Shown here one piece after another: positions 22,696 to 40,004 of a DNA stretch of 64,000 nucleotides. A program made the translations under genes and the position numbers. Under the pieces are notes generated by a model. It did no database searches, was not told the origin of the DNA, and saw nothing but the letters and a program-made list of their open reading frames with translations. The stretch covers positions 4,716 to 68,715 of the forward strand of contig CAQWRG010000005.1 in NCBI GenBank assembly GCA_948909305.1, given 5' to 3'. Every line of letters starts with the position of its first letter. Within the stretch, counting starts at the first letter, position 1. The DNA comes from an uncultured Lachnospiraceae bacterium. GTDB lineage: Bacteria; Bacillota; Clostridia; Lachnospirales; Lachnospiraceae.

Positions 22696-23313
22696 ATGGG
22701 AAACATATACGGATATGCACGTGTCAGTACGAGAGAGCAAAACGAGGACAGGCAGTTAATCGCATTACAGGAAGTTAGGGTGCCAAAACAAAATATTTAT
22801 TTGGATAAGCAGTCGGGCAGGGACTTCAACCGTCCGATGTATCTGCGCTTATTAAAAAAACTAAAAAGGGAGGATCTTCTTTATATACAGAGCATAGATC
22901 GCCTTGGAAGGAATTATGATGAAATTTTAGAGCAATGGAGAATCTTAACGAAAGAGAGAAAAGTGGATATTTCAGTGCTGGACATGCCCCTGCTGGATAC
23001 GAGGAGGGGGAAAGATTTAATGGGAACGTTTTTGAGTGACATTGTGCTTCAGGTATTGTCTTTTGTGGCGGAAAATGAGAGGAAATCAATCCGGCAGAGA
23101 CAGAGAGAAGGAATAGAAGCGGCCAAACTGCGCGGCGTGCAGTTTGGCAGGCCGAAACTGCCGATGCCGGAAAATTTTTTGGAAGCTTATGCAAGGTGGG
23201 TTTCAAAAGAAGTGTCGGGGGCAAAAGCGGCGGAACAATGCCATATGACAATGTCGACTTTTTACAGATGGGCGAATCAAAGAAAAGAGCAGGAAAGCAG
23301 GGAAGAAAAATAA
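22696..23313 (+). CDS. Small serine recombinase (resolvase/invertase family, Hin/Gin-like) with a C-terminal HTH
   Basis: N-terminal catalytic motif YGYARVSTREQNEDRQ (Ser nucleophile) and C-terminal HTH MTMSTFYRWANQ. An IR-flanked invertible segment starts 11 nt downstream. Confidence 0.85.
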   Translation: MGNIYGYARVSTREQNEDRQLIALQEVRVPKQNIYLDKQSGRDFNRPMYLRLLKKLKREDLLYIQSIDRLGRNYDEILEQWRILTKERKVDISVLDMPLLDTRRGKDLMGTFLSDIVLQVLSFVAENERKSIRQRQREGIEAAKLRGVQFGRPKLPMPENFLEAYARWVSKEVSGAKAAEQCHMTMSTFYRWANQRKEQESREEK

Positions 23314-23323
23314 AATAGATTTC

Positions 23324-23348
23324 CAGAAAGTGTACCTTTTGCAAAAAT
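23324..23348. repeat. Left inverted repeat of the invertible segment (core AAAGTGTACCTTTTG)
   Basis: Positions 23327-23341 are the perfect reverse complement of 23450-23464. Flanking bases extend the match imperfectly to about 21-25 bp. Confidence 0.75.
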
Positions 23349-23443
23349 CTGTAACATACATACTTTTAATTATTTTAATATAAAATCGACAAAAAGGCAA
23401 TAGAATTGACATTATTTTTGGGATTTGGAGCGTGGAGAGCTGG
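23349..23443. promoter_or_regulatory. Invertible DNA segment (inverton) carrying a promoter currently pointing leftward (OFF for the downstream operon)
   Basis: The segment between the inverted repeats contains, on the minus strand, TTGCCT (23395-23400) - 17 nt - TAAAAT (23372-23377). Inversion would aim it at the 23601 operon. Confidence 0.6.
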
Positions 23444-23468
23444 TTTTCAAAAGGTACACTTTTTGAAA
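23444..23468. repeat. Right inverted repeat of the invertible segment
   Basis: CAAAAGGTACACTTT (23448-23462) is the reverse complement of the left core. Confidence 0.75.
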
Positions 23469-23600
23469 AATGAAGTGAGTAAATTAGAAAAAATAGTCCA
23501 TTTAGAGTTGCAAAATAGATGAAAGAGAGGAGGAGTAACGGAAGCGGTTCTTATGATGCAACAGATTATATCAAATAAAAATGTTTAAGGAGAGGATACA

Positions 23601-24056
23601 ATGGCAAAGGAAATTAAATCGTTTAAAGTACATCCTGATTATGAAGAAGCGGAAATAAATTTTCGAAGAAAAGTGGGGTGGGAATTTATAAGCACACAAG
23701 AAATTTATAACAAAGACACCCATATGGAAGGAGGTATTTTCACTGATACTGTAACGAGTGTAACTGAGACAACGCATTTTGTAAAACTTACATTCCAGAG
23801 GGAGACGGAAAATGTAAACCCAGAGTTAATATCTTTGGAAAGGCAGATAGATAATATGCGTCCTCCAGAGGAACCACATACTTGGGGAACCATGGCTTTG
23901 ATTGTAGGGTTTATGCTCTATGTGCTTCCGGGAATATTTATGATGTCATCTAATAAAAAGAAGAAGCAGGAATATGAGCGCGTTTATTCTGAATATCAAA
24001 ATGAGTTCAGGCGGCTGCTTGCCCGTGTAGATGAACTTCAAATGGTGAAATCTTAA
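23601..24056 (+). CDS. Hypothetical membrane protein, first gene downstream of the inverton
   Basis: RBS AAGGAGAGG. One TM segment (WGTMALIVGFMLYVLPGIFMM). No known domain. Confidence 0.5.
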   Translation: MAKEIKSFKVHPDYEEAEINFRRKVGWEFISTQEIYNKDTHMEGGIFTDTVTSVTETTHFVKLTFQRETENVNPELISLERQIDNMRPPEEPHTWGTMALIVGFMLYVLPGIFMMSSNKKKKQEYERVYSEYQNEFRRLLARVDELQMVKS

Positions 24057-24076
24057 AGAAAGATAAGGAGAGCGCA

Positions 24077-24955
24077 ATGGAAAACAAAAAATATGCCCAG
24101 ATTCAGTATGATCCGGAAGATTTGCATAATGCCGCAGTCAAAGAAGTGACAGATCAGGGGGCAGAGGAATCTTTACTTGTCAACGAACTGGCGGAACAAG
24201 TTAAAGAGATGGCGCAAAGCGTGGAAATTCATTCAGAAAAAGAGGAAAAGAAAGCCCCTGATGTAATGGACGTGTTTGCGGGGGAAGCTGTGGCAGTGGA
24301 AGAATTTCCGGCAGAAATGGAGACGGAACTAGAAAAAGAGACGGAAGCAGAAAAGAAGACGGCGCCAGAAAAGGAGATGGAACTGGAAAAAGAGCGCGTT
24401 TCCGGTGAAAAAGAGCCGACGCAGGAAAGCGTTTTATATGAAGAATCGGATATTAAGAATATAAAAGAGGATATTGCATGTATTTATGGCGTAATGCGTC
24501 GTTTGGAGAAAAAATTTGAAGCGGAGATACTGGATTCGCAGAATAAGGCGGAAGCGGTCAAGAGTATCTATAAAGAGCTCAATGAGTATAAAGCGGGCCT
24601 TGTAGAAAAGGCGTTAAAAAATGTCCTTTATGACATCATTGACATGCGTGAAATGATGTTTTCTAAAGTGAAATTTGTCCGGGAGAAAGAAGGAAAAGAT
24701 ATGATTCCGCTAGAGGAGTTTGAATCTTATGCGGACGATATTGGAGATATTTTAGAAAAGCATGAGGTAACGATTTATAAAGGTGAGACGGGGGTGGAAA
24801 ATACAGCAGTCAGACAGAAGATTGTCCGAAAAGTAGAGACTGCCGACGCATCAATGGTAAAAAAAGTAGCGGAAAGCTTGAGTTATGGATATGAGTACAA
24901 TGGTAAAATCATTTACCCAGAAAAAATTAGTATTTATGTAAAAAGTAAAGAGTAA
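24077..24955 (+). CDS. GrpE-like nucleotide-exchange-factor homolog (acidic coiled-coil N-terminus, GrpE-type C-terminal domain)
   Basis: The C-terminus (..LEKHEVTIYKGETGVENTAVRQKIVRKVETADASMVKKVAESLSYGYEYNGKIIYPEKISIYVK) follows the GrpE pattern L.K.GVe.i...G..FDP..H.A.......g.V.ev.qkGY.l.drvlRPA.V.V.K. The N-terminus is Glu-rich. Confidence 0.55.
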   Translation: MENKKYAQIQYDPEDLHNAAVKEVTDQGAEESLLVNELAEQVKEMAQSVEIHSEKEEKKAPDVMDVFAGEAVAVEEFPAEMETELEKETEAEKKTAPEKEMELEKERVSGEKEPTQESVLYEESDIKNIKEDIACIYGVMRRLEKKFEAEILDSQNKAEAVKSIYKELNEYKAGLVEKALKNVLYDIIDMREMMFSKVKFVREKEGKDMIPLEEFESYADDIGDILEKHEVTIYKGETGVENTAVRQKIVRKVETADASMVKKVAESLSYGYEYNGKIIYPEKISIYVKSKE

Positions 24956-24969
24956 AAGAGGTAGATATT

Positions 24970-26718
24970 ATGGAAAATAAAGCATTTGGCATTGACCTTG
25001 GAACGACCTATTCTTGTATTAGTTATGTAGATGATATTTCAGGAGAGCCGGTTGTAGTAGATAACAGTGAAGGGACTAATGTAACGCCGTCCATTGTGTG
25101 TTTTGAAGATGAGGACACTATTGTTGTCGGCAACGTTGCAAAAGAAACGGCAGTGGTATCGCCGGAAGCCACCTGTGAATTTGTGAAGCGCAGAATGGGG
25201 GTGGATAAGGTAGCGATTACATATAATGGAACAGATTATTCCCCAGAGCAGATTTCTTCTTTGATTTTAAAAAAACTGGTGAAAGATGCGGAAGAAGCCC
25301 TAGATACAAAAATCAAGGATGTTGTAATCACCTGTCCCGCTTATTTTGGGATTGCAGAGAAAACAGCGACGGAAAATGCCGGGAAAATGGCAGGTTTAAA
25401 TGTGCTTGAAATTATCAATGAGCCGACGGCGGCCGCGCTTTGTTATGGAAGCCTCCGCGACGTAGAAGACAAAACGATACTAGTCTATGACTTGGGCGGC
25501 GGCACGTTTGATGTAACGATTATCCGCGTTACTCCGGAAGAAATTGTCGCAATCGCAACGGACGGCGACCATCAGTTGGGCGGAAAAGACTGGGACACGG
25601 CAGTGATGAACTGTGTGGAGGAAGTATTTCGTGACCAAAAATCGTTTGACGATGAATTTGATTTAGAAGCCCAGCAGGATTTGCGTCTGCGGGCGGAAAA
25701 AGCAAAACAGCAGCTTACAGGGAGGCCGAAAACAAAAGTAATCGTACAGGCTTCCGGCGCAAAGGCAAATATAGAATTTACAAGAGATGAGTTTGATGAA
25801 ATCACAAGCGCGCTCCTTAGCCAGACATTAGATAAAACAAAAGCTGCGATTGAAGCGGCTGAAAAAAAAGGCGTGACAAAAATAGATGAAATTATTTTAG
25901 TGGGCGGTTCCTGTAAAATGCCTCAGGTACGCGCGGCAGTGGAAGGCGCTTATCCTGATATTCCGGTTAAGATGTTCGAGCCGAATACGGCAGTTGCAAA
26001 AGGCGCTGCGCTTCATGCGGAGGCATTGTCTAAAGGACACGTCGAGTTACAAAAATGGCGGGATGAACTAAAAGAAGCGGTGGAAAACCTGAATAAAGAC
26101 AGGGCGCAGGAAGATAAAATTGATATTGACACACTGACGGAGGATACGATTTCCAAGGAGGACATGGAAGCGATCAAGAAAGAAGTGGAAAAGAACGGCG
26201 GCGATGCGCAGAAGGTGAAATTTGCCATTGGCGGGAAAGCCAGAGAAGGCGGCAAACAAGGCCCCGTGTTAAGAAATATCACATCGAAAAGTTTTGGCGT
26301 CCAGATCGTAAGAGATGAAATGGTAGACGGTAAAATGGAAATGGTGTATAAGATTGCGAATTTAATCCAAAAACAGGATGCTGTGCCTGTAACAGTGACA
26401 CAGGAATTTGGAACGGCATATGCCAATATGGAAAATGCGGAAATCGTTGTGTTTGAAACAGAGGTGACGGAAGAAGTCTATGACGTAGGATCGAATAGGG
26501 CTTTGGGCGCAGCAGTTTTAAATCTTCCGCCCAATTTGCCGGAAGGGGCGCCAATTCAGATTACATTCAGTTTGTCGACCGACGGCCTGTTAAGTATGAA
26601 AGGCGTGGATATGACTTCTAATCAGGAAGTGAAAACGATCTTAAAGACGGGTAGTATTTTGACAGAGGAAGACGTGGCGGCGCAGACGCAGGCGTTAAAG
26701 GGAATCCGCCTGAATTAA
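24970..26718 (+). CDS. Non-canonical Hsp70-family ATPase (DnaK-like nucleotide-binding domain, divergent C-terminal region)
   Basis: Hsp70 signatures IDLGTTYSCI, ITCPAYFGIAEKTATENAGKMAGLNVLEIINEPTAAALCYG and VYDLGGGTFDVTII. The C-terminal ~200 aa is unlike the canonical substrate-binding domain and lacks an EEVD tail. Confidence 0.85.
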   Translation: MENKAFGIDLGTTYSCISYVDDISGEPVVVDNSEGTNVTPSIVCFEDEDTIVVGNVAKETAVVSPEATCEFVKRRMGVDKVAITYNGTDYSPEQISSLILKKLVKDAEEALDTKIKDVVITCPAYFGIAEKTATENAGKMAGLNVLEIINEPTAAALCYGSLRDVEDKTILVYDLGGGTFDVTIIRVTPEEIVAIATDGDHQLGGKDWDTAVMNCVEEVFRDQKSFDDEFDLEAQQDLRLRAEKAKQQLTGRPKTKVIVQASGAKANIEFTRDEFDEITSALLSQTLDKTKAAIEAAEKKGVTKIDEIILVGGSCKMPQVRAAVEGAYPDIPVKMFEPNTAVAKGAALHAEALSKGHVELQKWRDELKEAVENLNKDRAQEDKIDIDTLTEDTISKEDMEAIKKEVEKNGGDAQKVKFAIGGKAREGGKQGPVLRNITSKSFGVQIVRDEMVDGKMEMVYKIANLIQKQDAVPVTVTQEFGTAYANMENAEIVVFETEVTEEVYDVGSNRALGAAVLNLPPNLPEGAPIQITFSLSTDGLLSMKGVDMTSNQEVKTILKTGSILTEEDVAAQTQALKGIRLN

Positions 26719-26743
26719 ATTAAAACAATGTGGGGGAAATGAA

Positions 26744-28840
26744 ATGAGAGTAGGAATAGATCTTGGAACAACATACTGCGCAATCGCTTATATTGACCCT
26801 AAAACGGGGAAGGCGAAAGTGATTCAGAACAGCGAAGGAAAATCCATCACGCCTTCCGTACTCTATTTTGATCCAAATGGGTCAGTTTTGCATGGAGAAG
26901 AAGCGAAAGCCTATGTGGAAGAAGGGTCTGACCGCACAGCGAATTATTTTAAATATTATATGGGTGACGAAACGTATGCGATCTGCCAGAATGGCAGAGA
27001 TTATACAGCGGTTGATCTTTCGGCTGAACTTTTAAAGGGCATTGTAAAAGAGGCGGAACAGGAAACGGGAGAACATATAGGGGAAGCGGTGATAACAGTT
27101 CCGGCGTATTTTAACCACCTTCAGCGTCAGGCGACGATGCGCGCGGGGCAGAACGCAGGCCTTACTGTTTTAAATATCATTAGTGAGCCGACAGCGGCCG
27201 TGTTCGCTTATGGGATACACGGTTCAGGGATAAACCAGACGGTTTTAGTCTATGACTTGGGCGGCGGCACATTTGACGTGACAATCGCCCGTATTACAGA
27301 CGATAGGATCGATGTGTTAGGTACGGACGGGGATCATAGGCTTGGCGGGAAAAACTGGGACGACGCTCTTTCAAATTACCTCGCAGATTGTTTTTATGAT
27401 GAATTTGGCATAGACGTTGGCAAAGATACAGAAAGAAATATTATGCTTCAGGCAATTTCCGAAAATACAAAAAAACAGCTTACGGAAAAGAAAAGCGCTA
27501 AAGCAGTGATTTACTGTAAGGGATGTAGAGGCGCGTATGAAATTACAGACGAGATTTTTGCAGAGATTACGTCCTATAATTTAAACCGGACAAAAGACAT
27601 TATACAAAAACTCTTTGATGAGCTTCAAATAGGCTGGGAGCAGATTGACGGCGTACTGCTTGTGGGCGGCTCTACACGCATGAAGCAGGTGAAAACATAT
27701 CTAACGGATATGTGTGGAAAACCTCCAATGAACGGCGTTAATGTAGATGAAGCTGTCGCGCTTGGAGCCGCAATCCGCGCTAATATTGACCGCAATGGCT
27801 TGGCGGCGCCGGTTGAATCAGGCAGTTTGTTTTCGATTGGCGGTTCTGTCTCAAAACCGCAGTTTTCCATTGCTGGAGCGAAGAAAATAAGCGATGCCAC
27901 GGCGCACAGCATGGGAATGATTGCTGTCAGCCAAGACGGGGAACGGTTTGTCAACAGCATAATGATAAAAAAGAATTCCAAGATTCCGTCGGAAGTTACA
28001 AAGTCATATGAGCTTGGCGTTTCTAAGAAACAGGAAAACCGTTTGGAGGTATACATGCTTCAGGGAGAGGAGGAAACGCTTGTATGGCCGCTAAATTGTA
28101 CAGTTCTTGGAAAGTATGTTTTTACAGGCATACAGGCAGGCGGGCAGAGAAAAGAAACGATCGATGTAACTTTTTATTATGATGAAAATAATATAGTCAA
28201 TGTCACGGCAAGGCAAAAAAGGACGGGGAGCCTTTTGGATTTGAAGATTGAACAGGCAGAAGATGACATGGACTGGGTTGTGGGAAACCCAAAAAACAGG
28301 GAAGGAACTTCTATGCCGCCCGAGCTGGCAGTTCTTTTAGCGGTCGATTTATCTGGGAGCATGGAAGGCGAAGGGATTACGGAAGCAAGAAAGGCGGCAG
28401 TCAGCTTTGTCAGGCAATTTGATATGGAGTATACAAAAATTGGGATTATCAATTTTGCAAACCAGTCGATTTTATATCAGCCATTGACTGATGACAGAAA
28501 CAGGCTGATTGTAAAAATCCAAGATTGGGAGATTAATGGAGACAATATTGGATATGGGACAAGCGCGGAACCCTTCACGCTTGCGTATGAAGTGCTAAAT
28601 TCCTATGAAACGGATATGAAATACGTCATTGTTTTAACGGACGGGTTTTGGAAATTTCAGGATCTTGCGATAGCGGCTGCGAAAAAATGTCATAAAAATA
28701 ATATGGAAGTGATTGCGCTTGGATTTGCGGATGCAAATACAGAATTTTTGGATGCAATCGCTTCCAGAAAAGATTTTTCAGCGTTTACAGATCTTTCTGA
28801 ATTAGAGACAACGCTGACCGGCATTGCGAAGATGATGTAA
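26744..28840 (+). CDS. Non-canonical Hsp70-family ATPase fused to a C-terminal von Willebrand factor A (vWA) domain
   Basis: Hsp70 motifs IDLGTTYCAI, ITVPAYFNHLQRQATMRAGQNAGLTVLNIISEPTAAVFAYG and VYDLGGGTFDVTIA. The C-terminal vWA has the MIDAS LAVDLSGSM...VIVLTDGFW. Confidence 0.85.
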   Translation: MRVGIDLGTTYCAIAYIDPKTGKAKVIQNSEGKSITPSVLYFDPNGSVLHGEEAKAYVEEGSDRTANYFKYYMGDETYAICQNGRDYTAVDLSAELLKGIVKEAEQETGEHIGEAVITVPAYFNHLQRQATMRAGQNAGLTVLNIISEPTAAVFAYGIHGSGINQTVLVYDLGGGTFDVTIARITDDRIDVLGTDGDHRLGGKNWDDALSNYLADCFYDEFGIDVGKDTERNIMLQAISENTKKQLTEKKSAKAVIYCKGCRGAYEITDEIFAEITSYNLNRTKDIIQKLFDELQIGWEQIDGVLLVGGSTRMKQVKTYLTDMCGKPPMNGVNVDEAVALGAAIRANIDRNGLAAPVESGSLFSIGGSVSKPQFSIAGAKKISDATAHSMGMIAVSQDGERFVNSIMIKKNSKIPSEVTKSYELGVSKKQENRLEVYMLQGEEETLVWPLNCTVLGKYVFTGIQAGGQRKETIDVTFYYDENNIVNVTARQKRTGSLLDLKIEQAEDDMDWVVGNPKNREGTSMPPELAVLLAVDLSGSMEGEGITEARKAAVSFVRQFDMEYTKIGIINFANQSILYQPLTDDRNRLIVKIQDWEINGDNIGYGTSAEPFTLAYEVLNSYETDMKYVIVLTDGFWKFQDLAIAAAKKCHKNNMEVIALGFADANTEFLDAIASRKDFSAFTDLSELETTLTGIAKMM

Positions 28841-28858
28841 TGGTAAGAGGAGAGAGAA

Positions 28859-31800
28859 ATGGGAAGAGGAGCGGACAACTTTTATCTGATTTTAGGGCTG
28901 GATTTCTTAAAGCCGGAATCTGACCAGAAAGTCATACTAAAACGCCTTAATGAAAAACAGAAGTTTTGGGATAAAAATAGGGAGCACAGGGAAAAGGGAC
29001 CTAAATATCGGCAATATAGCCAGTGGGTGCCAATTATCGCAAGCACGATGGCAAAGGAATCCTCACGCAATGCAGAAGCGAACGACGCGAGGGCATATGT
29101 GCAGCAGCGTCTGAGTGAAAATAAAAGGCATTTAGGCGGAAAGCAGAAGATTGATTCCTCTACGGCAGAGGCGATGATGGAGCTGTGTGGGCTTAGCGTA
29201 GAATTAAAAGATTTGTTTGAAAAGCTGGCGAATGTGCAAATATCGGATGAGAACGAAGAAATAAAAAAAGAAGATCCAAATCCGAAGCCAACTGGATTTG
29301 CAAGATTTTCCAAGTTAAAAGGTTCAGAGAAATATTTGTCCGTATTGAGAAAAACAGATTTATATCATTTTTTGGCGGACAGTGAAGAACAGGCAGATCA
29401 AATCGGAATCAGAAACCTGTCCGGAAAAGATTTGCTGGAAAAACATTTAGCGCCCATTAAAAAGGCATTTGAACATGACCGTGGAAATGAGGGTACGGCA
29501 GTCAAAGAGTTAGCATCTCTTTGCGAAGATATATTTGATCCTGCCCATCCAGAAAGGAAGGAAGAATACGACCTCTATTTAATCTGGAAGCAAAAAGATG
29601 AGATCATAACGAAAATGGTGGCTTTTTCCGGTAAAAACAGAAAACTGGAGCAGGGACAGCAGGAACCTTTTGTTGATGCCCTGACCCAGATTTTGAAAGA
29701 CAGGGAATCGGCGGTAAAAGTTTTTCAGCAAATTTGCATATTTAAAGACATTTCGTTTTCTTCTGTACAGGAGAACAAAAACAGGGTGGCGTGCGGGCAC
29801 TGTTTTGCGATGGTGGACATTTCCCATGGAGAGCGTAAATGCTCAGTCTGCGGCAGTGACTTATACATCAAATGCCCGAACCCGGATTGTAAGAAAGAAG
29901 TCCTTGCATCTTCGAGAGCCTGCGGCTACTGCGGGACGGATATGAATTTAGCGCAAAAGGCGGAACAGCTTTGCAATATGGCAAAGGCGGCGATTGCCAG
30001 TATGGATATTGCAAAAGCAAGGGGCGCCCTTGTGAGGGCGGAACAGCTTTTGAAGGGATATGCTAAAACGGTAAAGTTAAGCGCTGAACTTGAGAAATTG
30101 GAACGGTCGTTTTCGAAGGAACTCGAAAATTTGGATGCATTGATTGCAAAAAAAGAATTTTATCACGCGAATGATGTATTAAAAACAATTTTGCAAAAAG
30201 CGCCGACAGCGCAGATTGCTCAGGCTGTCTTGGTGGAAAATGCAGTCAAAGAAGCGGAAAATCTTTATCAATCAGCGCTTACAAAGAAAACGGAAGGTGA
30301 ATTGATTCAGATATGTTCCCAGATTGTCAACTTGTGTGTGGATTATCCGGGAGTAGAGGCTCTGATTTTAAAATTTCCTCCGAAACCTGTTTCTAATATT
30401 AAAATTTTGGCGGATACAGCTACATGCGTTAATACATTGACATGGGATAAAAGCCCGTCAGAAGGAGAGATTTGCTATAAAATTATCCGAAAAGAAAATA
30501 CTGCGGCCGCATCGGTTGGAGATAAAAGCGCGGAAGAAATTGGAGAGGCGGGGATTCCCCGTTTTGTAGATGAACATGTAAGAGCCGGAGTGGATTATTA
30601 TTACAGTATTTATACAATCCGCGCAGGAGCCGCATCGGAGCCTGCGTTTGCCCATGCAGTAAATTTGGCGGAAGCGAATTTAATCCGGACGGAAGAAGGA
30701 GATGGTTATGTCAGGGCGGAATGGAAACCGTTAGGAGGACATGCCGCCGCGGAAGTCTGGCGGATAGAAGGCGAGACGCCGCCGTGTCGCGGTGAAGGCG
30801 AAAGAATTACATCGGGCAGTAATTATTTTATGGACGACGCCGTAGAAAATGACCGCGCATACAGTTATCTTATTACGGTGAAATACCAGACTGGTGGAAA
30901 AAGCGTTTTTACGAATGGGGTTTCCATTACGCTGTTCCCATCTTCTGTCCCAGAGCCGGTAGAAGATTTGACGGTTTCCAATGTGGAGGATGATATCTTT
31001 GAAGCGGTTTTTTCGTATGAAGGTGAGGAAAAAGTGTCGCTTTACTGCGCAGAGCAGAGAACCTCATTTCAGTATGGAGATATAGTCGGCATGGATAAGG
31101 TGACGGCAGCTTTAAAGCCGCTTGAGATTCTTTCATCGTCGAAAAACAGCGTAAGGTTCCGTTTAAAAGACAATAAAAAATATGTCATTGTGCCGGTAAG
31201 CATTAAACATAATACTGCGGTCATCGGGGAATGCGCCGCTGTAGCCAAAATGGAAAAAATCCAGATAAAAGGTATGGAATGGGTTAATTCCACGCTGCAT
31301 ATCCGCATGGAATGGCCAAAAGAAGCCGTTTTAGCGATTGCTCTTTATGGAACAGACAGTTATGCCAAAAATCTGGAAGACCGCGCAGGCAAAACGTCTC
31401 GGAGCGTCAGTAAAAAACAATTTGAAGCGGACGGCGCGCTTTTACTGAAAAACATAGAGAAAAAAGATTATTTTATTACGTTATTCTCCGCATGCAGAGT
31501 CAATGGGGAGCTTGTCTATTCAGATGGCGCACGGCTGACTTTTACAAATAAGGAAAAGACGGATATCCACTATACGATCAGGCGGAAAGGCTTTCTCAAC
31601 AAACAGGTAGAAATTGAATTTAAAAGCACAGTAAAAACGTTTGCCCTGCCAGAGATTGACCTGATTTCAAAACAACATGCCGTTCCGGTTTATGCAAATT
31701 CAGGAAACCTTGCGCGACACATTGCGGCTCAGGAAGTCTGTGGAAGCCACATTGAGCTGTTTGAAGCAAAATCTTTTCCCAAAGACAGTTATATCAAAGC

Positions 31801-31876
31801 GTTTTTTACAGATGAAGATATAAATGACAAATTAAGCCTGCGTCCGGCGTATGGCACGGATTTTAAAGTAAATTAA
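28859..31876 (+). CDS. Large multidomain protein with an N-terminal degenerate J-like domain (HPD motif lost), two zinc ribbons, a helical region and FN3/Ig-like beta domains
   Basis: The N-terminus NFYLILGLDF..ESDQKVILKRLNEKQKFWDKN aligns to J-domain helices II/III (DYYEILGV...KAYRKLAMKYHPDKN) with HPD replaced. Zinc ribbons CGHC...CSVCG and CPNPDC...CGYCG. The C-terminal half predicts all-beta. Confidence 0.55.
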   Translation: MGRGADNFYLILGLDFLKPESDQKVILKRLNEKQKFWDKNREHREKGPKYRQYSQWVPIIASTMAKESSRNAEANDARAYVQQRLSENKRHLGGKQKIDSSTAEAMMELCGLSVELKDLFEKLANVQISDENEEIKKEDPNPKPTGFARFSKLKGSEKYLSVLRKTDLYHFLADSEEQADQIGIRNLSGKDLLEKHLAPIKKAFEHDRGNEGTAVKELASLCEDIFDPAHPERKEEYDLYLIWKQKDEIITKMVAFSGKNRKLEQGQQEPFVDALTQILKDRESAVKVFQQICIFKDISFSSVQENKNRVACGHCFAMVDISHGERKCSVCGSDLYIKCPNPDCKKEVLASSRACGYCGTDMNLAQKAEQLCNMAKAAIASMDIAKARGALVRAEQLLKGYAKTVKLSAELEKLERSFSKELENLDALIAKKEFYHANDVLKTILQKAPTAQIAQAVLVENAVKEAENLYQSALTKKTEGELIQICSQIVNLCVDYPGVEALILKFPPKPVSNIKILADTATCVNTLTWDKSPSEGEICYKIIRKENTAAASVGDKSAEEIGEAGIPRFVDEHVRAGVDYYYSIYTIRAGAASEPAFAHAVNLAEANLIRTEEGDGYVRAEWKPLGGHAAAEVWRIEGETPPCRGEGERITSGSNYFMDDAVENDRAYSYLITVKYQTGGKSVFTNGVSITLFPSSVPEPVEDLTVSNVEDDIFEAVFSYEGEEKVSLYCAEQRTSFQYGDIVGMDKVTAALKPLEILSSSKNSVRFRLKDNKKYVIVPVSIKHNTAVIGECAAVAKMEKIQIKGMEWVNSTLHIRMEWPKEAVLAIALYGTDSYAKNLEDRAGKTSRSVSKKQFEADGALLLKNIEKKDYFITLFSACRVNGELVYSDGARLTFTNKEKTDIHYTIRRKGFLNKQVEIEFKSTVKTFALPEIDLISKQHAVPVYANSGNLARHIAAQEVCGSHIELFEAKSFPKDSYIKAFFTDEDINDKLSLRPAYGTDFKVN

Positions 31877-31905
31877 AGAGGATTGCTATTTAGGAGGAAG
31901 AAGAA

Positions 31906-33144
31906 ATGGCAAAAAAATACACATGTCCCTATTGTTTTAAAGAGCATGAATTTGAAGATGTGGAATTTCGGTGTGTCAATGGGTTTTGCAGTGAGAAAAC
32001 GCAAGATGAAAAATACGCCCAGTATTTGGGGTTAAAGAAGGAATCAATGCCGCTGACAAACGCGACATTTTGCGCGAAAACGGTTTTGCCGAAATTGTTC
32101 CGCGGCCGTTATATGCCGATGTGGGAGAATTGCCCGTTTTGTGAAACAAAGACGTCAATCCGGGTTTGCCCGGACTGCCATAATGAGCTTCCGGAAGGAA
32201 TCCAAGATAATGAAGATATGATAATCGCGATTGTAGGGAGCCGTGATACGGGAAAAACGCATTTTATTTCTGTATTAATCAATGAACTGCAAAAGAGGAT
32301 ATGCCCTACGGTTTTCAATGGAATTTTTAATCCTATGAATGACGCGGTGCATAATCATTATATGGATCATTTTTACAACAGGGTTTATATACAAAAACAG
32401 TTACAGGATTTAACGGCGACAGCAAACCAGAGAGGGGAAATATCCGTAAGGAAGCCGTTAATTTATGAAATGATTATTCCGTTGGACGACAAAGGGAAGC
32501 GTGTCCGCAAGTTTACATTTGTATTTTACGATACCGCGGGTGAAGATTTAAAAAGTGAAGCGGTGATGAAGACGGTAAACCGTTATATCTGTAAAGCGGC
32601 GGGAATTATCTTTTTGCTTGACCCGCTTCAGATTATGGAGCTGCGGAACAATATGGATGAAGATGAAATCAAAACGTCTTCTTCTATTCTGGAAAATGAG
32701 ATTGTATCGCAAGAAATGGTTTTACAGAGAATTGCAAATGTAATCCGTGAGGATAAAGGAATGAAAAAATCGCAGAAAATCAATGTGCCTACAGCAATCG
32801 CGTTTTCGAAATTTGATGTGTTAAAACGTTTCTTCCCAAAAGGCAGCATAGTATTGGAGCCTTCGAGTTATCTGCGGGAAGGGCAGCTTGATAAAAGCGA
32901 ATGGTTTACTGTAAGCAATGAGATAGAAGCGATGCTCAATGAGTGGGGAGCGGGCGGATTTGCCACACAGGTAAAAATGACGTTTGACAGGTATACATAT
33001 AGCGCCGTATCGGCTTTGGGGCAGCGTCCGATATTGTCGAAATCGGGAGGGGCGAAAGAAATTGCAAGCCAGCCGATGCCGCATCGGGTAGAAGATCCGT
33101 TTTTATGGCTCTTAAAAGAAAACCGGGTTATCAAAGAAAAATAG
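31906..33144 (+). CDS. Double zinc-ribbon protein fused to a Ras-like small GTPase / P-loop domain
   Basis: Zinc ribbons CPYC...C..C and CPFC...CPDC. G1 IAIVGSRDTGKTHF, G3 FVFYDTAGED (DTAGQE-like), G4-like FSKFD. Confidence 0.55.
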   Translation: MAKKYTCPYCFKEHEFEDVEFRCVNGFCSEKTQDEKYAQYLGLKKESMPLTNATFCAKTVLPKLFRGRYMPMWENCPFCETKTSIRVCPDCHNELPEGIQDNEDMIIAIVGSRDTGKTHFISVLINELQKRICPTVFNGIFNPMNDAVHNHYMDHFYNRVYIQKQLQDLTATANQRGEISVRKPLIYEMIIPLDDKGKRVRKFTFVFYDTAGEDLKSEAVMKTVNRYICKAAGIIFLLDPLQIMELRNNMDEDEIKTSSSILENEIVSQEMVLQRIANVIREDKGMKKSQKINVPTAIAFSKFDVLKRFFPKGSIVLEPSSYLREGQLDKSEWFTVSNEIEAMLNEWGAGGFATQVKMTFDRYTYSAVSALGQRPILSKSGGAKEIASQPMPHRVEDPFLWLLKENRVIKEK

Positions 33145-33156
33145 GGAGGAAAAGAA

Positions 33157-35436
33157 ATGGGGATAAATCAGGCGCTTTTTACTTCTTCTGCCCGTGGAAT
33201 CAGTAAGGGCGGGGGATTGGGCTTACATAGTTATAACAGGACATGCAGTGACATGGAACTGAGGGAATTTGAGCAGGGGTTCTGCCACTATTCCTATCAG
33301 GGCGACAGCAGCGAAATACCGAATCTGCCCAAAAAAATGCTGTATAAGAAAATTGATGGAGATCGGTATCTATTGGCAAGCGTGACTTATTTGGGAAAGG
33401 ATTATCTCAAGGAGCAAGGGCGTATGGGAAACCTTCTTAGCCATATGTATTCTTTTGAGAGAAAAGACCTTACGAAATATCCGATGGAATTTTGCGCAAG
33501 CCCTGATTTCCGTTATGAAATGGAATCTGATGAAGTGGACGGCAGCAGGCGCGTAGAGTATCTTTCTGAAGTAAGCGGCGTTAGGACGGGGACGAAAGTC
33601 ATGCGTGAAACTGTACAGGCATTTTTAGAAGCAGAGCCTTGGAGAATTGATTTTTTCAGAAATCTTTTAGCGGCGGTTTTTCATAGGGATGCAGTCCATA
33701 AAGTAATCCTTTCCGACAGCCATGAACATATTTTGATGTGGCTTGCGGCGGTTGAATTTGCTCTGCCATTGCAGTGCGCAATAGAACTTTCTTTCTCCAG
33801 TTATGAAGAAAATCCAATGATTTCGGAGTTTGATATCCGCGGCATGGCATCTGGGCTTAGCGTGGGAAGTTGTGAAGAATACGCCGCAAGCGGGCAGTAT
33901 TATGTATTTGACGGGAATCATCAGGCTTATCCCAAATTTGATATAACGGAGGGTTATTTTCAGTATGGAATTTTATTTGGCATAGACAGTATTCAGGGGT
34001 TTTGTGATTTTATGAAATCATATGGATATTATAGCGTAGATATGGATATTTGCGCCGGATACAATCTCTACCAAATGGTACAGGGAGGAATGGATCTTCT
34101 GGGAGAAAAGGAGTTTCAGGATGCAGTTTCATTTGAAAGCAAGTATGGAGATCGCGCCACATACAGGCAGATTTTAGAAAACCAGTTTGAAAAAATAGAA
34201 GGAAATTACACACCAGATCTTTCAGTGTTAAAAAGCATTTATGTCTGGCTGATTGGGTATTTTCAGAAACCGCTTACGATAAAAGACTTGGAGTTTGCGG
34301 TCGCATACGCTGTTCGGCTGGAGCGGTATGGAAAGGACAATACTAAACTTGTAAATGCAAGAAAGCAGATGTGGGAATTTATCTATGAAACGATGGTGCA
34401 GAGCAAACAGAAAACGGCGCTTGCTTTTTTGCTTGAGAAGTTAAAAGAGGCGGGATTGTATGAACATATTGGAGAGTTTAGCCGTTATCTGATCCAGTTT
34501 GCAAACGAAGATACGGCTGCAAAAAGGCTTGGCCGTCTGTTCACTATGCTGTGGGAGGCTGTGCCGCAGACAGAATACCGGTATTTCGATGCGGTTGTTG
34601 AGACAGAAGCGGACCGGCTTGCCGCATATGATGGAAAAGAGCAGTACAGGGAAGCGCTGCTTGCTTTTTTGAAAGTTCAGGAACTGGGATATGGGCAGGT
34701 GCATGGGAAGGGAATGGAAAAGCTGATAGCCTTTCTATCGTGCGGAACAAATTTCGAAGATTTAAAACCCAGAAAACAGGGGCTGATTCATAGAAAAAAA
34801 GAAAACCGTGACGAGCTGGAACAGCTTCAGGCAAAAGCCGCATTTGAAGCGTTTAATTATGCGCAGAAGCATAACAAAAATATATCTATTGCAAACATCA
34901 GGCTTTTGCATTTAGGCAAGTGCATCCAAAATGCGTTTGAATTGGAAAAACCGCTGGAAAAGGTTAAAACGCTCCGGATTTATTCGGATTATCCGGTGGA
35001 TATGGAACGGATTTCGCATGATGAATTTGAGTTTTATTTGGATATTCTGTGTGAGACGATTTTTACAATGCAGTTAGATAAGTCGGATTATATGCAGCTT
35101 TTGACGTATTGGATTTTGGAAAAACGGCAGAAAAGCATATTAATGCAAAAATTTTTGTCCGGTGAAATGAACAGCGTAAAAAAGGATAGTGAAGCAGGCG
35201 GGCTTATAAGTCTTCTGTCAGCGCTTAAGAATCTGAATGATGAGGAATATACAGAAGCGTTTCAAAAGAATCTCTTTTTGCTTAAGGAATCACAGCGCGT
35301 TAGGGCGGCGGATTTAATGAAAAAAGAGTATGGAGCGGACAATGAAGGCTATCGGTTTTGGCGGCAGTTAATACGCGGAGAAAAACCGACTGAAAAAAGT
35401 CTGACAAAGAAATTTCCGAAATTTGGGAAAAGGTAA
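33157..35436 (+). CDS. Hypothetical 759-aa protein, predicted cytoplasmic and alpha-rich
   Basis: A 12-nt gap with an RBS couples it to the GTPase gene. No recognisable motif. Confidence 0.5.
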   Translation: MGINQALFTSSARGISKGGGLGLHSYNRTCSDMELREFEQGFCHYSYQGDSSEIPNLPKKMLYKKIDGDRYLLASVTYLGKDYLKEQGRMGNLLSHMYSFERKDLTKYPMEFCASPDFRYEMESDEVDGSRRVEYLSEVSGVRTGTKVMRETVQAFLEAEPWRIDFFRNLLAAVFHRDAVHKVILSDSHEHILMWLAAVEFALPLQCAIELSFSSYEENPMISEFDIRGMASGLSVGSCEEYAASGQYYVFDGNHQAYPKFDITEGYFQYGILFGIDSIQGFCDFMKSYGYYSVDMDICAGYNLYQMVQGGMDLLGEKEFQDAVSFESKYGDRATYRQILENQFEKIEGNYTPDLSVLKSIYVWLIGYFQKPLTIKDLEFAVAYAVRLERYGKDNTKLVNARKQMWEFIYETMVQSKQKTALAFLLEKLKEAGLYEHIGEFSRYLIQFANEDTAAKRLGRLFTMLWEAVPQTEYRYFDAVVETEADRLAAYDGKEQYREALLAFLKVQELGYGQVHGKGMEKLIAFLSCGTNFEDLKPRKQGLIHRKKENRDELEQLQAKAAFEAFNYAQKHNKNISIANIRLLHLGKCIQNAFELEKPLEKVKTLRIYSDYPVDMERISHDEFEFYLDILCETIFTMQLDKSDYMQLLTYWILEKRQKSILMQKFLSGEMNSVKKDSEAGGLISLLSALKNLNDEEYTEAFQKNLFLLKESQRVRAADLMKKEYGADNEGYRFWRQLIRGEKPTEKSLTKKFPKFGKR

Positions 35437-35451
35437 GGCGGAGATATAAAT

Positions 35452-36495
35452 ATGGCGTTTAAAAGAGCGAATCGGGAGATTGTTCAAAACATAAAAAAGG
35501 GATATTACTACCGGAAAATGCCGCCTGCGCTTCAAAAAGGCTATGAAATTGCGGCAGAGGGGATTCTTTCTTTTCAGAAAAAAGTAAAGATAGCGGATTG
35601 CTCTGGCAAGGAAGAAATGGAGCGGATTATCCGCGCTGTCCTTATGGAACATCCTCAGTTTTTTTATTTGAATGCAAAAGATATTGGCGTTGTAAATGCG
35701 GGGGAGTCATTTTCGTTTTCCTTTCATTATTTGTATGACAAAAAAGAAGCCATTCAGCTATTGCAGCAGATAGACAATCGGGCAGACTATATTTTGTCAG
35801 AAATCATTACGGACGGCATGACGGATTATGATAAATGCGTGGCAATTCATGATTATGTTACAAATCATATCCGTTACAATTTTTCTGCGGCGGCAGTTTC
35901 CTATATTTACGATGCATTTACGATAGAAGGCCCTATCCTAAAAAATCAGGCGGTTTGCGAAGGGATTGCAAAGACCATCGCTTATTTACTGGACAAGCTT
36001 TCTGTCAATCATTTAATTGTGGCAGGTTTTAGTGACATTGATGGGGTTCATGCGCCGCACGCATGGAATATGGTGGAGTTAGAAGGAAGTTATTATCATA
36101 TCGATGCGACATGGGATTTACAGGAAATCAATCATTTTACGAACTGCTCTCATATGTATGTAAATTTAGACGATGACTCCATGCTTGAAAACCATGATTG
36201 GGAATTGGGGGACTATCCGTCTTGTGATAAACGGGCAGAGAACTATTATGTAAAAGAAGGGCGTTTTTTCCGGTCAATGCGAAGCTTTGAATTGTATGCG
36301 CAGAAATTTTTACAGGAGGGGCAGTCTTTTATGGACGCCAGGTTTGAAGATGTATTGGATTTGCCTGATGAGAATGGGAATTATTTGGCGGAAATAATTC
36401 AGAAAAGCGCTGTGTATGCCGGGAAAAGATGTCAGGTATCTTTTGTCTTCCATCCATGCAATTATGTGTTTCAGGCGAATGTGATGTATGGATAA
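35452..36495 (+). CDS. Transglutaminase-like superfamily cysteine protease/transglutaminase
   Basis: Cys-His-Asp core AVCEGIAKTIAYLL ... HAWNMVEL ... YHIDATWD. Confidence 0.75.
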   Translation: MAFKRANREIVQNIKKGYYYRKMPPALQKGYEIAAEGILSFQKKVKIADCSGKEEMERIIRAVLMEHPQFFYLNAKDIGVVNAGESFSFSFHYLYDKKEAIQLLQQIDNRADYILSEIITDGMTDYDKCVAIHDYVTNHIRYNFSAAAVSYIYDAFTIEGPILKNQAVCEGIAKTIAYLLDKLSVNHLIVAGFSDIDGVHAPHAWNMVELEGSYYHIDATWDLQEINHFTNCSHMYVNLDDDSMLENHDWELGDYPSCDKRAENYYVKEGRFFRSMRSFELYAQKFLQEGQSFMDARFEDVLDLPDENGNYLAEIIQKSAVYAGKRCQVSFVFHPCNYVFQANVMYG

Positions 36496-36519
36496 TTAGG
36501 AAATAGGAAGAAGGACGAG

Positions 36520-37296
36520 ATGAAATTTTCAAATTATAGAAAACAAGATGTATATAAGATGCTGTTAAAGGCGGCAGTGGCATTCGTGATTCTGATTGTG
36601 GCTTTGTTTACAGTTTACAGGATTGCAAAGCCAAAAGTGGATATGTGGCTTTTAGAGAGGAAAGAGGCTAAAGAAAAAAGAGAAGCGGAAGAAAAAAAGG
36701 AAGCGGAAGAAAAAGCGGAAAGGGAATCCGAAGAACAAAGAATGCAGGAACTTGCGGAAGAATCGGATCGGATAAGCGACGGGCAGGAACAGAAAGATTC
36801 TGAATATGAGGAAGAATCAGAAACGGAAGAACCGGAAACGGAAGAATCGTCTATTCATCGGTATGAGTATGTAGTGGAAGATTGTACATGGCAGGAAGCG
36901 TTTGAAACATGCAAGTCAAAAGGGGGCTGTCTTGTCAATATCGACGACGAAGCGGAGTTTGCCTATATTACAGCGGAAATTGAAAAAAACGGTATGAAAG
37001 AGATCTTGTTTTATTTGGGAGCATCACAGGATTCGGAACAAAATTACCGTTGGCGGTCGGCAGAAGGCGCGTTTAGCGGGGGTATCCTAAATGGAGTGGG
37101 ACATTCTTGGCACAGCAGATATTGGATGCAGGGAGAACCCAGTTATTATGACGGAGAAATAGAAGAAAATGTACTGGCTATGCAGTTTTTTGAAAAAGAA
37201 GCGAGATGGGTATTCAATGATGTGCCGGGGGATATTGTGGGAAATTTTTCATATCTCAGTGGAAAAATAGGCTATATCTGTGAATACAGTGAGTAG
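36520..37296 (+). CDS. Type-II membrane protein with an extracellular C-type-lectin-like domain (CTLD), paralog 1
   Basis: Conserved N-terminus MKFSNYRKQD..KMLL, one TM, a Glu/Lys-rich stalk, then the CTLD (CTWQEAFETCKSKGGCLVNID...WRSAEG...WMQGEPS...WVFNDVPGD...YICEY). Confidence 0.7.
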   Translation: MKFSNYRKQDVYKMLLKAAVAFVILIVALFTVYRIAKPKVDMWLLERKEAKEKREAEEKKEAEEKAERESEEQRMQELAEESDRISDGQEQKDSEYEEESETEEPETEESSIHRYEYVVEDCTWQEAFETCKSKGGCLVNIDDEAEFAYITAEIEKNGMKEILFYLGASQDSEQNYRWRSAEGAFSGGILNGVGHSWHSRYWMQGEPSYYDGEIEENVLAMQFFEKEARWVFNDVPGDIVGNFSYLSGKIGYICEYSE

Positions 37297-37326
37297 GCAG
37301 GGAAATTTATCGGGAGAAGATAAGGT

Positions 37327-38589
37327 ATGAAATTAAAAAAGGCGCTGGCAGTTAGTTTGTGTATGTTGTTTTGCGTTTTGCTGGGATATGTGTTTGGAGA
37401 ATGGAAAGCGGGAAAAGAAAGTGTGGCGCGTCCTAAAAAAAAGTCCATAGAACAAACGGCATCGGAGGAAAAAGAGAAAGAGCCGCTGTCTGTAACGGAA
37501 AGTGTGGAATCGCTTCCGAAAGAAGACGCAAAGGAAACATGGATTCGTGAAAAGCTGTCTGAGATGACAGAGGAACAGAAGGCGGCTCAGTTATTTGTGA
37601 TTTTGCCGGAAGCGTTGACCGGGGTAAGACAGGTAATCCGGGCTGGAGAAACTTCAAGGCAAAGTCTGTTATCGTATCCGGTCGGAGGCTTGATTTATAT
37701 GTCCGGAAGCCTGAAAAGTCCGGAGCAGACAAAAGAAATGCTTGGAAATATGATGGAGTTTAGCCAAAATGATACGGGCATACCGCTGTTTTTATGCGTT
37801 GATGAGGAAGGCGGTAAGGTGGCGCGGGTGGCGTCGAATCCGGCATTTGGCGTACAGAATGTTGGGAATATGAGGGAAATTGGAGATTCTGGCGACATTA
37901 GAAGGGCTTATGCGGCAGGAAAGGAAATGGGGGCGTATTTAAAAGACCTTGGCTTTAATGTGGATTTTGCGCCTGTAGCGGATGTTTTGACAAATCCACA
38001 GAACGAGCTATTGCAAAACAGAAGTTTTGGGTCAGATGCTGAATTGGTGCGGGGCATGGTAGAACAGGCGGCAAAGGGAATTGAGGAATCTGGCGTATTT
38101 TCCTGCGTCAAGCATTTTCCGGGTCATGGGAATACAAATGAAGATTCGCATAATGGCTATGCGACGACGCAAAAGACTTTAGAGGAAATGCGTCAGACTG
38201 AATTTATCCCGTTTCAAGATCAGATTGAAAAAGGGATTTCGTTTGTTATGGCAGGGCATATTTCCGCGCCGAATGTGATGGGAGATCAGACGCCTTCATC
38301 TTTATCCGGCATTATGCTGACAGATATTTTACGCAATGAGCTAAAGTTTGACGGAATTATTATTACTGATGCATTAAATATGGGAGCGGTTACAAGCCAT
38401 TATTCTTCTGGGGAAGCTGCGGTTATGGCTTTTTTGGCCGGGGCGGATATGCTTTTGATGCCTCAGGATTTTCATAGCGCATACAATGCAATTTTAGAAG
38501 AAATTCATCAGGGCAGGATTACAAAAGAACGTTTGGATGCATCGGTTGGGAGGATATTAAGTGTGAAGTATCAGTTACTACAAAAATAA
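37327..38589 (+). CDS. Glycoside hydrolase family 3 beta-N-acetylhexosaminidase (NagZ-like), membrane-anchored
   Basis: N-terminal TM anchor. GH3 signature KHFPGHGNT..DSH and GIIITDALNMGA. Confidence 0.8.
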   Translation: MKLKKALAVSLCMLFCVLLGYVFGEWKAGKESVARPKKKSIEQTASEEKEKEPLSVTESVESLPKEDAKETWIREKLSEMTEEQKAAQLFVILPEALTGVRQVIRAGETSRQSLLSYPVGGLIYMSGSLKSPEQTKEMLGNMMEFSQNDTGIPLFLCVDEEGGKVARVASNPAFGVQNVGNMREIGDSGDIRRAYAAGKEMGAYLKDLGFNVDFAPVADVLTNPQNELLQNRSFGSDAELVRGMVEQAAKGIEESGVFSCVKHFPGHGNTNEDSHNGYATTQKTLEEMRQTEFIPFQDQIEKGISFVMAGHISAPNVMGDQTPSSLSGIMLTDILRNELKFDGIIITDALNMGAVTSHYSSGEAAVMAFLAGADMLLMPQDFHSAYNAILEEIHQGRITKERLDASVGRILSVKYQLLQK

Positions 38590-38603
38590 ACGGTGGAGAA
38601 AAA

Positions 38604-39975: not shown

Positions 39976-40004
39976 GCAGGCTTGAAAGAAAGGGGAGAGA
40001 TCAA

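Follow-up and report, generated by a model that had tools for sequence, protein, structure and literature searches.

A lineage-specific Lachnospiraceae variant of the predicted GTPase-centred conflict systems with Hsp70 and GrpE

The DNA analysed here is a 64,000-nucleotide stretch of contig CAQWRG010000005.1 (referred to in full as the window) from the mouse-gut Lachnospiraceae metagenome-assembled genome MGBC163558. At positions 23601-36495, it carries eight plus-strand genes for a zinc-ribbon GTPase, its associated protein GAP1, a fibronectin type III (FNIII) repeat protein, two Hsp70 paralogues, a GrpE, a transglutaminase-like protein and a small transmembrane (TM) protein. The initial annotation had proposed these genes as an undescribed system built on an unusual Hsp70 machine. 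We find that the locus is not an undescribed system, since the Pfam models for GAP1-N2, GAP1-M and DO-GTPase match its proteins and its components fit, item by item, the class described by Kaur, Burroughs, Iyer and Aravind (eLife 2020; PMC7159879), as far as the parts of that article dealing with this class go. It is a lineage-specific variant of a predicted GTPase-centred conflict system with Hsp70 and GrpE. We are highly confident that it belongs to the published GAP1-N2 DO-GTPase class. The fuller description, namely a Lachnospiraceae variant of a GAP1-N2-type, DO-GTPase-centred NTP-dependent system carrying the Hsp70/GrpE theme and with a predicted conflict role, is in our judgement probable.

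A conserved operon of eight genes

The open reading frame (ORF) listing of the window reproduced exactly the eight genes annotated before, all on the plus strand:

23601-24056, plus strand: 151-aa protein with one C-proximal TM helix (residues 97-115, hydropathy scan)
24077-24955, plus strand: GrpE-type nucleotide exchange factor, 292 aa (PF01025 in orthologues, fold search)
24970-26718, plus strand: Hsp70 paralogue A, 582 aa; nucleotide-binding domain (NBD) 6-355, charged insert of about 100 aa, beta part of the substrate-binding domain (SBD-beta) at about 464-570, no lid (PF00012, 2e-96)
26744-28840, plus strand: Hsp70 paralogue B fused to a von Willebrand factor A (vWA) domain, 698 aa; NBD 3-349, SBD-beta at about 403-505, vWA with MIDAS 530-688 (PF00012, 3e-99; PF00092, 1e-15)
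28859-31876, plus strand: 1005-aa scaffold; J-like N-terminal domain without HPD 1-95, helical region, double zinc ribbon 312-359, coiled coil, FNIII-type repeats at about 506-1005
31906-33144, plus strand: two N-terminal zinc ribbons and DO-GTPase2, a TRAFAC GTPase with Walker B DxxGE, 412 aa (PF19993)
33157-35436, plus strand: GAP1 (GTPase-associated protein 1), 759 aa; GAP1-N2 3-125, GAP1-M 154-224, variable C-terminal half (PF20013, PF20014)
35452-36495, plus strand: cytoplasmic transglutaminase-like Cys-His-Asp protein, 347 aa (PF01841, 2e-5)

The intergenic gaps are, in order, 20, 14, 25, 18, 29, 12 and 15 nt, and a ribosome-binding site (RBS) of the GGAG type precedes each gene. The tight packing and strong RBSs described earlier are therefore reproduced, with the upper limit of the quoted 12-25 nt range exceeded by the one gap of 29 nt, and the reading of the eight genes as a single conserved operon is supported. 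The close spacing goes on beyond 36495, where the next gaps measure 24, 30 and 14 nt; the right-hand boundary drawn initially is therefore arbitrary. Because a plus-strand terminator scan of 35400-49000 returned no convincing candidate, the 3′ boundary of the operon is left undefined. Among the eight core proteins, only the 151-aa protein contains a TM segment in a hydropathy scan, as had been claimed for it. It gave no Pfam, NCBIfam or PADLOC match; an orthologue with 70% identity is present in loci L011/L016, and a 160-aa gene occupies the same place in L004/L017.

The zinc-ribbon GTPase and GAP1

The family DO-GTPase2 (PF19993) was the best match in all seven GTPase orthologues (best E of 6e-9), while the window protein alone scored 21.8 bits, under the gathering score of 27, with weak matches to DO-GTPase2 and DO-GTPase1. 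Its motifs GSRDTGKT, DTAGE (a Walker B with an invariant Glu) and SKFD are conserved in the orthologues, and the two zinc ribbons, CPYC...C..C and CPFC...CPDC, are kept in all of them (four CxxC). The protein had been described as a double zinc ribbon fused to a Ras-like GTPase: the ribbons and the GTPase motifs are confirmed, and its assignment to the DO-GTPase2 family had been overlooked.

The 759-aa protein encoded 12 nt 3′ of the GTPase gene, an arrangement found in all loci, had been left without an identity and proved to be GAP1. GAP1-N2 (PF20013) matched at 4e-10, above its gathering score of 24, and GAP1-M (PF20014) at 4e-6 (27.3 bits, likewise above a gathering score of 24); residues 225-759 returned no Pfam match and form the variable half. 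All 35 clusters of GAP1 homologues, at 38-57% identity, possess the N2 and M pair. Conservation within GAP1 is 0.71 in the N-terminal half and 0.48 in the C-terminal half. GAP1 is the fastest-evolving component of the locus (40-57% identity to the window) and the GTPase is the most conserved (75-86%); the corresponding values are 64-79% for the Hsp70s and 50-66% for the scaffold.

Two lidless Hsp70 paralogues and a dedicated GrpE

Profile searches placed both ATPases within the Hsp70 family, with the E-values listed above, and found a C-terminal vWA domain in one of them, in agreement with the initial annotation. The NBDs of paralogues A and B share 41% identity. The Hsp70 motifs DLGTT, DLGGGTFD and VGGS are kept in the orthologues, in which the ATPase motifs are invariant, and the MIDAS motifs DxSGS (DLSGS) and LTDG of the vWA domain are conserved as well. 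The C-termini had been considered unrelated to a peptide-binding domain, a claim that did not survive alignment: residues 464-570 of Hsp70A align with SBD-beta of DnaK at 391-494 (i-E of 1e-7), and residues 403-505 of the Hsp70-vWA fusion with DnaK 413-510 (i-E of 1e-5). In both proteins, the α-helical lid is the sole missing part of the SBD. Hsp70A, in which the charged insert sits between NBD and SBD-beta, stops after SBD-beta, and in Hsp70B the vWA domain occupies the place of the lid. At the position of VLLL in DnaK, the two proteins read VLRN and KKIS, respectively, which we take to be degenerate forms of the hydrophobic interdomain linker. The NCBIfam DnaK equivalog models scored 331-345 bits against cut-offs of 648-822.

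The 292-aa protein has the layout of GrpE, with a variable acidic N-terminal region followed by a conserved GrpE domain at about 125-292. The window protein itself gave no Pfam match; PF01025 was matched by three of six orthologue C-terminal domains (best E of 5e-6) and is carried by four database homologues as precomputed matches. An AlphaFold model of residues 120-292 (pLDDT of 84.6) was searched against the PDB with Foldseek, and the best 12 matches were all GrpE (E of 7e-7 to 3e-3; TM-scores of 0.66/0.74 to 1dkg_B), with nothing significant outside GrpE. An earlier hhalign comparison of the family profile with E. coli GrpE was collinear, though with an E of only 0.043, and is superseded by this fold search. 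Because of the PF01025 matches in orthologues and the all-GrpE top matches of the model, the protein that had been called GrpE-like is confirmed as GrpE.

The N-terminal region of this family is hypervariable. In one species, represented by loci L002 (117-1754) and L010, the protein reaches 545-612 aa through a long low-complexity repeat region rich in Q, G and P, with recurring 'NQAD(T/A)...GKK' units, and the GrpE domain itself is conserved.

The FNIII scaffold and its J-like N-terminal domain

The 1005-aa protein had been described as a J-like domain that lost HPD, followed by two zinc ribbons. The loss of HPD and the zinc ribbons stand, the double ribbon being found by Pfam. The FNIII repeats had been overlooked: fibronectin structures in the PDB match residues 506-713 (E of 8e-4), fn3 (PF00041) matches P0060, a full-length homologue, at 1.3e-6, and many homologues carry precomputed Fn3_SaeA matches. 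A literature search on 'SaeA', the name used in these Pfam families, found nothing relevant.

At the sequence level, the J-like assignment did not hold. J-domain matches were non-significant in Pfam searches of six orthologue N-termini, in a PDB profile search and in an hhalign comparison with the E. coli DnaJ J-domain. A profile of the domain retrieved 689 representative clusters, 195 of them at E<=1e-10, among 1.84 billion. Its invariant residues are N7, L12, L14, I26 and W37, and the loop at the position of HPD in J-domains has the consensus N-H-P-[T/K]-K-G (EHREKG in the window protein). Among 50 sampled members, four are joined directly to an Hsp70 NBD and one shows a weak PF00226 match; other partners include DZR, fn3 (8 of 50), Lcl_C, TPR, TIR and PKD. 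The domain thus makes up a large family of its own that lacks HPD, and its weak likeness to J-domains is confined to the fold. A functional tie of this divergent J-like domain to Hsp70 is supported by the fusions and the fold, though not proven.

Transglutaminase-like protein and membrane-anchored lectin

The assignment of the last of the eight genes to a transglutaminase-like Cys-His-Asp enzyme was borne out. In addition to PF01841, the protein matched the NCBIfam MAG6410 transglutaminase-related model (6.5e-20) and PDB entry 9crn (8e-15). The triad is conserved across orthologues, the hydropathy scan found no TM segment in the protein, and none of the five full-size orthologous loci lacks the gene.

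The operon then runs on into genes for a TM-anchored Lectin_C, a GH3, a two-TM and a second Lectin_C protein, with gaps of 14-30 nt, consistent with the lectin-like surface genes reported earlier beside the operon. The first two are:

36520-37296, plus strand: N-terminal TM anchor (14-32), acidic linker and C-type-lectin-fold domain (Lectin_C, 2e-5), after a 24-nt gap with RBS
37327-38589, plus strand: membrane-anchored GH3 (NagZ-like) glycosidase, TM 6-24 (PF00933, 1e-74)

The TM-lectin gene is a probable additional member of the operon beyond the limits first drawn; L002, L004, L009, L011 and L012 also have a Lectin_C gene after that for the transglutaminase. Of these loci, only L011 and L012 have a GH3 orthologue in the corresponding place, and the GH3 gene is a possible accessory gene.

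Conservation and distribution

A scan limited by its peptide patterns recovered only six loci from 185,579 species representatives, all of them in Lachnospiraceae/Eubacterium; locus L008 is 100% identical to the window. Besides the window species, at least five other Lachnospiraceae/Eubacterium species, with the loci L002/L010, L004, L009, L011 and L012, keep the order GrpE, Hsp70A, Hsp70-vWA, scaffold, GTPase, GAP1, an optional HerA/FtsK-like ATPase, transglutaminase and TM-anchored Lectin_C, often followed by GH3. The neighbourhood is thus conserved between these species, a point on which the initial annotation had called for a check. The optional ATPase, of about 1050 aa, lies between GAP1 and transglutaminase in L004 (12285-15446), L009 and L012 and is absent from the window; it matches DUF87 (1e-13), PADLOC mad8 (1e-20) and HerA (6e-20). 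A reduced form in L006, L007 and L013 possesses one Hsp70, a shorter protein with an FNIII tail, DO-GTPase2 and GAP1.

The carriers are mouse-gut and rumen Lachnospiraceae, and the flanking genes vary between species. Conflict-type genes are frequent among the neighbours. In L002, the gene next after that for the lectin encodes a CHAT protein, and the window has one too, at 52203-54875; L004 contributes NADase_transloc proteins, and ClpP-like and TraG-like proteins were met with as well. The locus behaves as an accessory island with a patchy distribution.

Relation to known systems

In the parts of PMC7159879 that cover these systems, GTPase-centric systems consist of a DO-GTPase and a downstream GAP1 with N, M and C domains. 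The DO-GTPase is described there as a TRAFAC GTPase with a Walker B Glu, often with one or two N-terminal zinc ribbons, and the GAP1-N2 type adds a protein with rapidly evolving FNIII repeats. Within the Hsp70/GrpE theme, the FNIII protein is fused to a DnaJ domain or TPR, and a subset of systems contains a second Hsp70 made up of the NBD only, without the peptide-binding domain. The authors predicted computationally that these are biological-conflict (anti-invader) systems. Measured against this account, the window locus shares the TRAFAC GTPase, which has the Glu in its Walker B and a pair of zinc ribbons at its N-terminus, and the GAP1 gene directly downstream of it, coding for N2 and M domains. 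It also shares an FNIII-repeat protein, whose N-terminal domain may resemble an Hsp70 cofactor, an Hsp70 with a second paralogue and GrpE, a Firmicutes host and membrane-proximal components. In contrast to the published theme, the N-terminal domain of its FNIII protein lacks HPD and stays below significance for Pfam DnaJ. New relative to the theme, as far as the text on it extends, are the Hsp70-vWA fusion, the retention of both SBD-betas, the transglutaminase, the TM-lectin, the optional HerA-like ATPase and, in two species, the invertase-type switch.

Three further systems invite comparison. With canonical DnaK-DnaJ-GrpE, the locus has in common an Hsp70 NBD with all ATPase motifs, SBD-beta, a GrpE-fold exchange factor and possibly a J-like fold; unlike it, the locus lacks the lid, HPD, hrcA and dnaJ, scores far under the DnaK cut-offs and is always linked to the GTPase and GAP1. 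The MoxR-vWA 'ternary' conflict systems (PMC7159879) likewise combine an NTPase chaperone with a vWA co-chaperone and variable partners, and effector classes of the CHAT/caspase type lie near the window locus as well. Its NTPase, however, is an Hsp70 fused to vWA rather than an AAA+ MoxR, and neither VMAP nor iSTAND is present. CoCoNuT type III with the Hsp70-like CnuD (Bell et al., eLife 2024; PMC11090510) also places an Hsp70-like NBD/SBD inside a GTPase-containing predicted defence operon, and extended CoCoNuT versions include vWA and FtsK/HerA-like ATPases. There, in contrast, the GTPase is a McrB-type AAA+ and not TRAFAC, the Walker motifs of CnuD are degenerate and its predicted role is to bind RNA, and HEPN nucleases and coiled-coil McrC homologues accompany CnuD, none of which were found in the window system.

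A candidate invertible element upstream

Two features precede the operon:

22696-23313, plus strand: small serine recombinase of the resolvase/invertase type, 205 aa (PF00239 Resolvase, 3.5e-27)
23320-23469, no strand: candidate invertible element, 26-nt inverted repeats (23320-23345 and 23444-23469, arms 88% complementary) around 98 bp

The inverted repeats begin 7 nt past the recombinase stop codon. Their 15-mer core, AAAGTGTACCTTTTG, was found only as this pair in the 64 kb, and two matches were reached in 0 of 100 shuffles. The recombinase gene stands at the same position in the sister-species locus L016, where the repeat measures 29 nt (86%) with arms 94 nt apart and the interior is better conserved than the diverged flanks. 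The region upstream of L017 and L018 has no such recombinase gene; since these two other species lack it, the switch falls outside the core system.

Promoter-like hexamers lie on both strands of the 98-bp segment. The plus-strand candidate is TCGACA-18-CATTAT, and a minus-strand pair, TTGC[C/T]T-17-TA[A/G]AAT, is conserved in the window (TTGCCT-17-TAAAAT) and L016. Should the minus-strand pair prove to be the true promoter, the operon would be switched OFF in the assembled state. The inverted state would be recognised by the diagnostic junction GTGTACCTTTTG[A/C]AAACCAGCTCTCCACGC. The window, L016 and the two JGI metagenome contigs that match the switch (L014 and L015) all have the assembled orientation, in a very small sample of four assemblies and no reads. 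Of the invertible promoter proposed initially, the recombinase and the inverted repeat are thus present, and inversion was not seen. The arrangement suggests that a recombinase-driven invertible segment probably gates expression in the window species and one sister species.

About 2 kb further upstream, at 19177-21368 (plus strand), a 233-aa ORF precedes a multi-TM GHKL histidine kinase (HATPase_c_5, 9e-19), resembling a sensing pair of the Agr/LytTR type; it has no conserved counterpart ahead of the system in L016, L017 or L018.

Functional interpretation

The gene set is best read as conflict-type or envelope-associated, so that the accessory conflict- or host-interaction-type character suggested initially is retained, and the phase variation attached to it is not established. 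A conflict (anti-invader) function appears reasonably likely to us. The evidence for it is contextual and consists of the patchy distribution, the flanks that vary between species and the conflict-type neighbours, namely CHAT, the HerA/mad8-like ATPase, NADase_transloc, a PD-T4-6-like kinase and a viperin-like radical-SAM protein.

Several observations weigh against this interpretation. The conflict role of the class is a published prediction rather than an experimental finding, and the searched literature yielded no other paper using the GAP1/DO-GTPase names and no experimental study of any class member. PADLOC models gave no meaningful match to the eight proteins and so tied none of them to a defence system that has been defined by experiment. 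No obvious toxic effector is present at the locus, and many neighbours are surface proteins, which fit an envelope role equally well. Both window Hsp70s keep SBD-beta, in contrast to the NBD-only second copy in the published theme, and the vWA-fused Hsp70, the conserved transglutaminase and the TM C-type lectin do not appear in the text of PMC7159879 on that theme. Furthermore, HPD, which is needed for Hsp70 stimulation, is absent from 149 of 150 members of the scaffold N-domain family; as the J-like assignment is weak and HPD is missing, docking of Hsp70 by this domain would follow from the fusions only.

For a conflict system of this kind, a mechanism can be proposed, with less confidence than the function itself. 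The zinc-ribbon GTPase and GAP1 may constitute a co-evolving nucleotide switch, in which the conserved GAP1-N2/M half would bind the GTPase while the variable C-terminal half would sense a trigger or pick a partner. This switch would control assembly of the 1005-aa FNIII scaffold, whose J-like domain would dock the two lidless Hsp70s. These would cycle on ATP and be reset by the dedicated GrpE, with Hsp70B also holding a ligand through the MIDAS site of its vWA domain. The output would be a regulated multimeric assembly near the membrane, where the 151-aa TM protein and the TM-anchored lectins are found, and the transglutaminase-like thiol enzyme would be the likely executing activity, through cleavage or cross-linking. 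In the two species with the recombinase, the invertible segment would set whether the system is expressed.

The most closely competing explanation sees the locus as a phase-variable machine dedicated to the cell envelope or to surface assembly, without an immune role. Here, the Hsp70/GrpE/GTPase module would build or remodel a membrane-proximal, cytoskeleton-like FNIII scaffold, which would position or control membrane-anchored C-type-lectin, GH3, LRR and Ig-like proteins for host-glycan or cell-cell contact. The unbroken run of the operon into the TM-anchored Lectin_C, GH3, two-TM and Lectin_C genes agrees with such a machine, as do the Lectin_C neighbour kept in five loci, the GH3 neighbour in two, and the lectin/YARHG, BspA-LRR and Big_2 proteins encoded further downstream in the window. 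Invertible promoters in gut bacteria typically govern surface structures, and invertase-type control would fit this picture; the recombinase switch, however, is missing in L017 and L018. Also at odds with an envelope machine are the very patchy distribution with flanks that differ by species, the fast-evolving half of GAP1 and the recurrent CHAT, HerA-like ATPase and NADase-type neighbours typical of conflict loci, while seven of the eight core proteins are cytoplasmic and a secretion component is lacking. We consider this explanation unlikely.

A more novel reading is that of a phase-variable, trans-envelope sensing and execution machine. Membrane-anchored C-type lectins would signal phage adsorption, glycan contact or a similar event outside the cell to the cytoplasmic GTPase-GAP1 switch, which would license two lidless Hsp70s (docked by the J-like domain without HPD, with a private GrpE and one vWA clamp). 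Through these, the FNIII scaffold would assemble in a polymer-like manner and the transglutaminase-type thiol enzyme would be activated. This scheme is speculative, and we doubt that it is correct as a whole. If true, it would mean that prokaryotic immunity had put the Hsp70 cycle to a new use, as the motor of an assembly process, with DNA-invertase ON/OFF control at the population level.

That the locus is a truly undescribed system with a superficial likeness to known ones is very improbable. The lack of PADLOC matches agrees with it, as does the limited overlap of the published theme with the Hsp70-vWA, transglutaminase, TM-lectin, optional HerA-like ATPase and invertase switch, none of which the text on that theme mentions. 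Yet both signature proteins match the Pfam models of the class (GAP1-N2/M and DO-GTPase2), and the FNIII protein, the two Hsp70s, GrpE and the two zinc ribbons on the GTPase agree with the corresponding passages one after another. Finally, the presence of GrpE and of Hsp70s whose ATPase motifs are intact could recall the ordinary heat-shock dnaK/grpE locus of the clade, which is practically discounted, as the initial annotation had also held, by the missing hrcA and dnaJ, the sub-cut-off DnaK scores, the lidless state of both Hsp70s, one with vWA, and the occurrence in only six species representatives, always linked to GAP1 and DO-GTPase.

Other genes in the window

Two paralogous TM-anchored C-type-lectin proteins are encoded at 38845-39975 and 44775-45821 (plus strand), the second with a YARHG domain, and short DNA stretches are common to both genes; in L004, YARHG and Lectin_C genes likewise follow the homologous system. 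A diversity-generating retroelement acting on the lectin genes was considered and rejected, with no long repeat pairs of the template/variable type in the window and no reverse transcriptase among the scanned ORFs.

A Ser/Thr kinase gene and a radical-SAM gene, about 180 nt apart with the kinase upstream, lie at 41137-43327 (plus strand). The best PADLOC matches of the kinase are mad6 and PD-T4-6 (1e-37 to 1e-35), and the N-terminal core of the radical-SAM protein matches prokaryotic viperin models (pVip, 2e-14), in the radical-SAM core only. Judging from these matches, the two may form a viperin-like, kinase-associated defence pair.

At 48022-48148, five tandem A/G-rich units of 22-23 nt (AAAGACAGCGAAAGAAAAG-like) occupy an intergenic region before genes for a TY-Chap1/YbjN-type chaperone (48232-48747, plus strand) and a TraG/VirD4-type coupling-protein ATPase (48648-50060, plus strand; PF02534, 1.5e-36). 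Because no other conjugation genes were recognised nearby, the latter is perhaps not part of a conjugative element but a recruited ATPase. Further downstream, a 797-aa protein (54887-57280, plus strand) matches the Major Vault Protein shoulder domain (PF11978, 5e-21) and, weakly, a Vault_3 repeat. Its gene lies directly 3′ of that for the CHAT (caspase-like) protein of 890 aa mentioned above, with a ClpP-like protease at 50035-50628 nearby; a vault-like protein adjoining a CHAT protease is unusual in a Firmicute. Upstream of the genes from 18105, a cobalamin riboswitch (RF00174; 17486-17676, plus strand; 97 bits, E of 6e-23) is present and is unrelated to the operon.

Implications

GAP1 and DO-GTPase define a large, computationally predicted class for which experimental characterisation was not met with in the searched literature, and the window locus offers a well-delimited, cross-species variant of it in gut commensals. 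Since all enzymatic motifs are intact, its biochemistry is accessible: binding between GTPase and GAP1, GrpE-stimulated exchange on the lidless Hsp70s and the ligands of the vWA MIDAS site can be tested. The scaffold N-domain, fused to Hsp70 in other proteins yet devoid of HPD, raises the question of how Hsp70 may be recruited without canonical J-domain stimulation. The candidate DNA-invertase switch, in turn, would give a natural ON/OFF handle on such a system.

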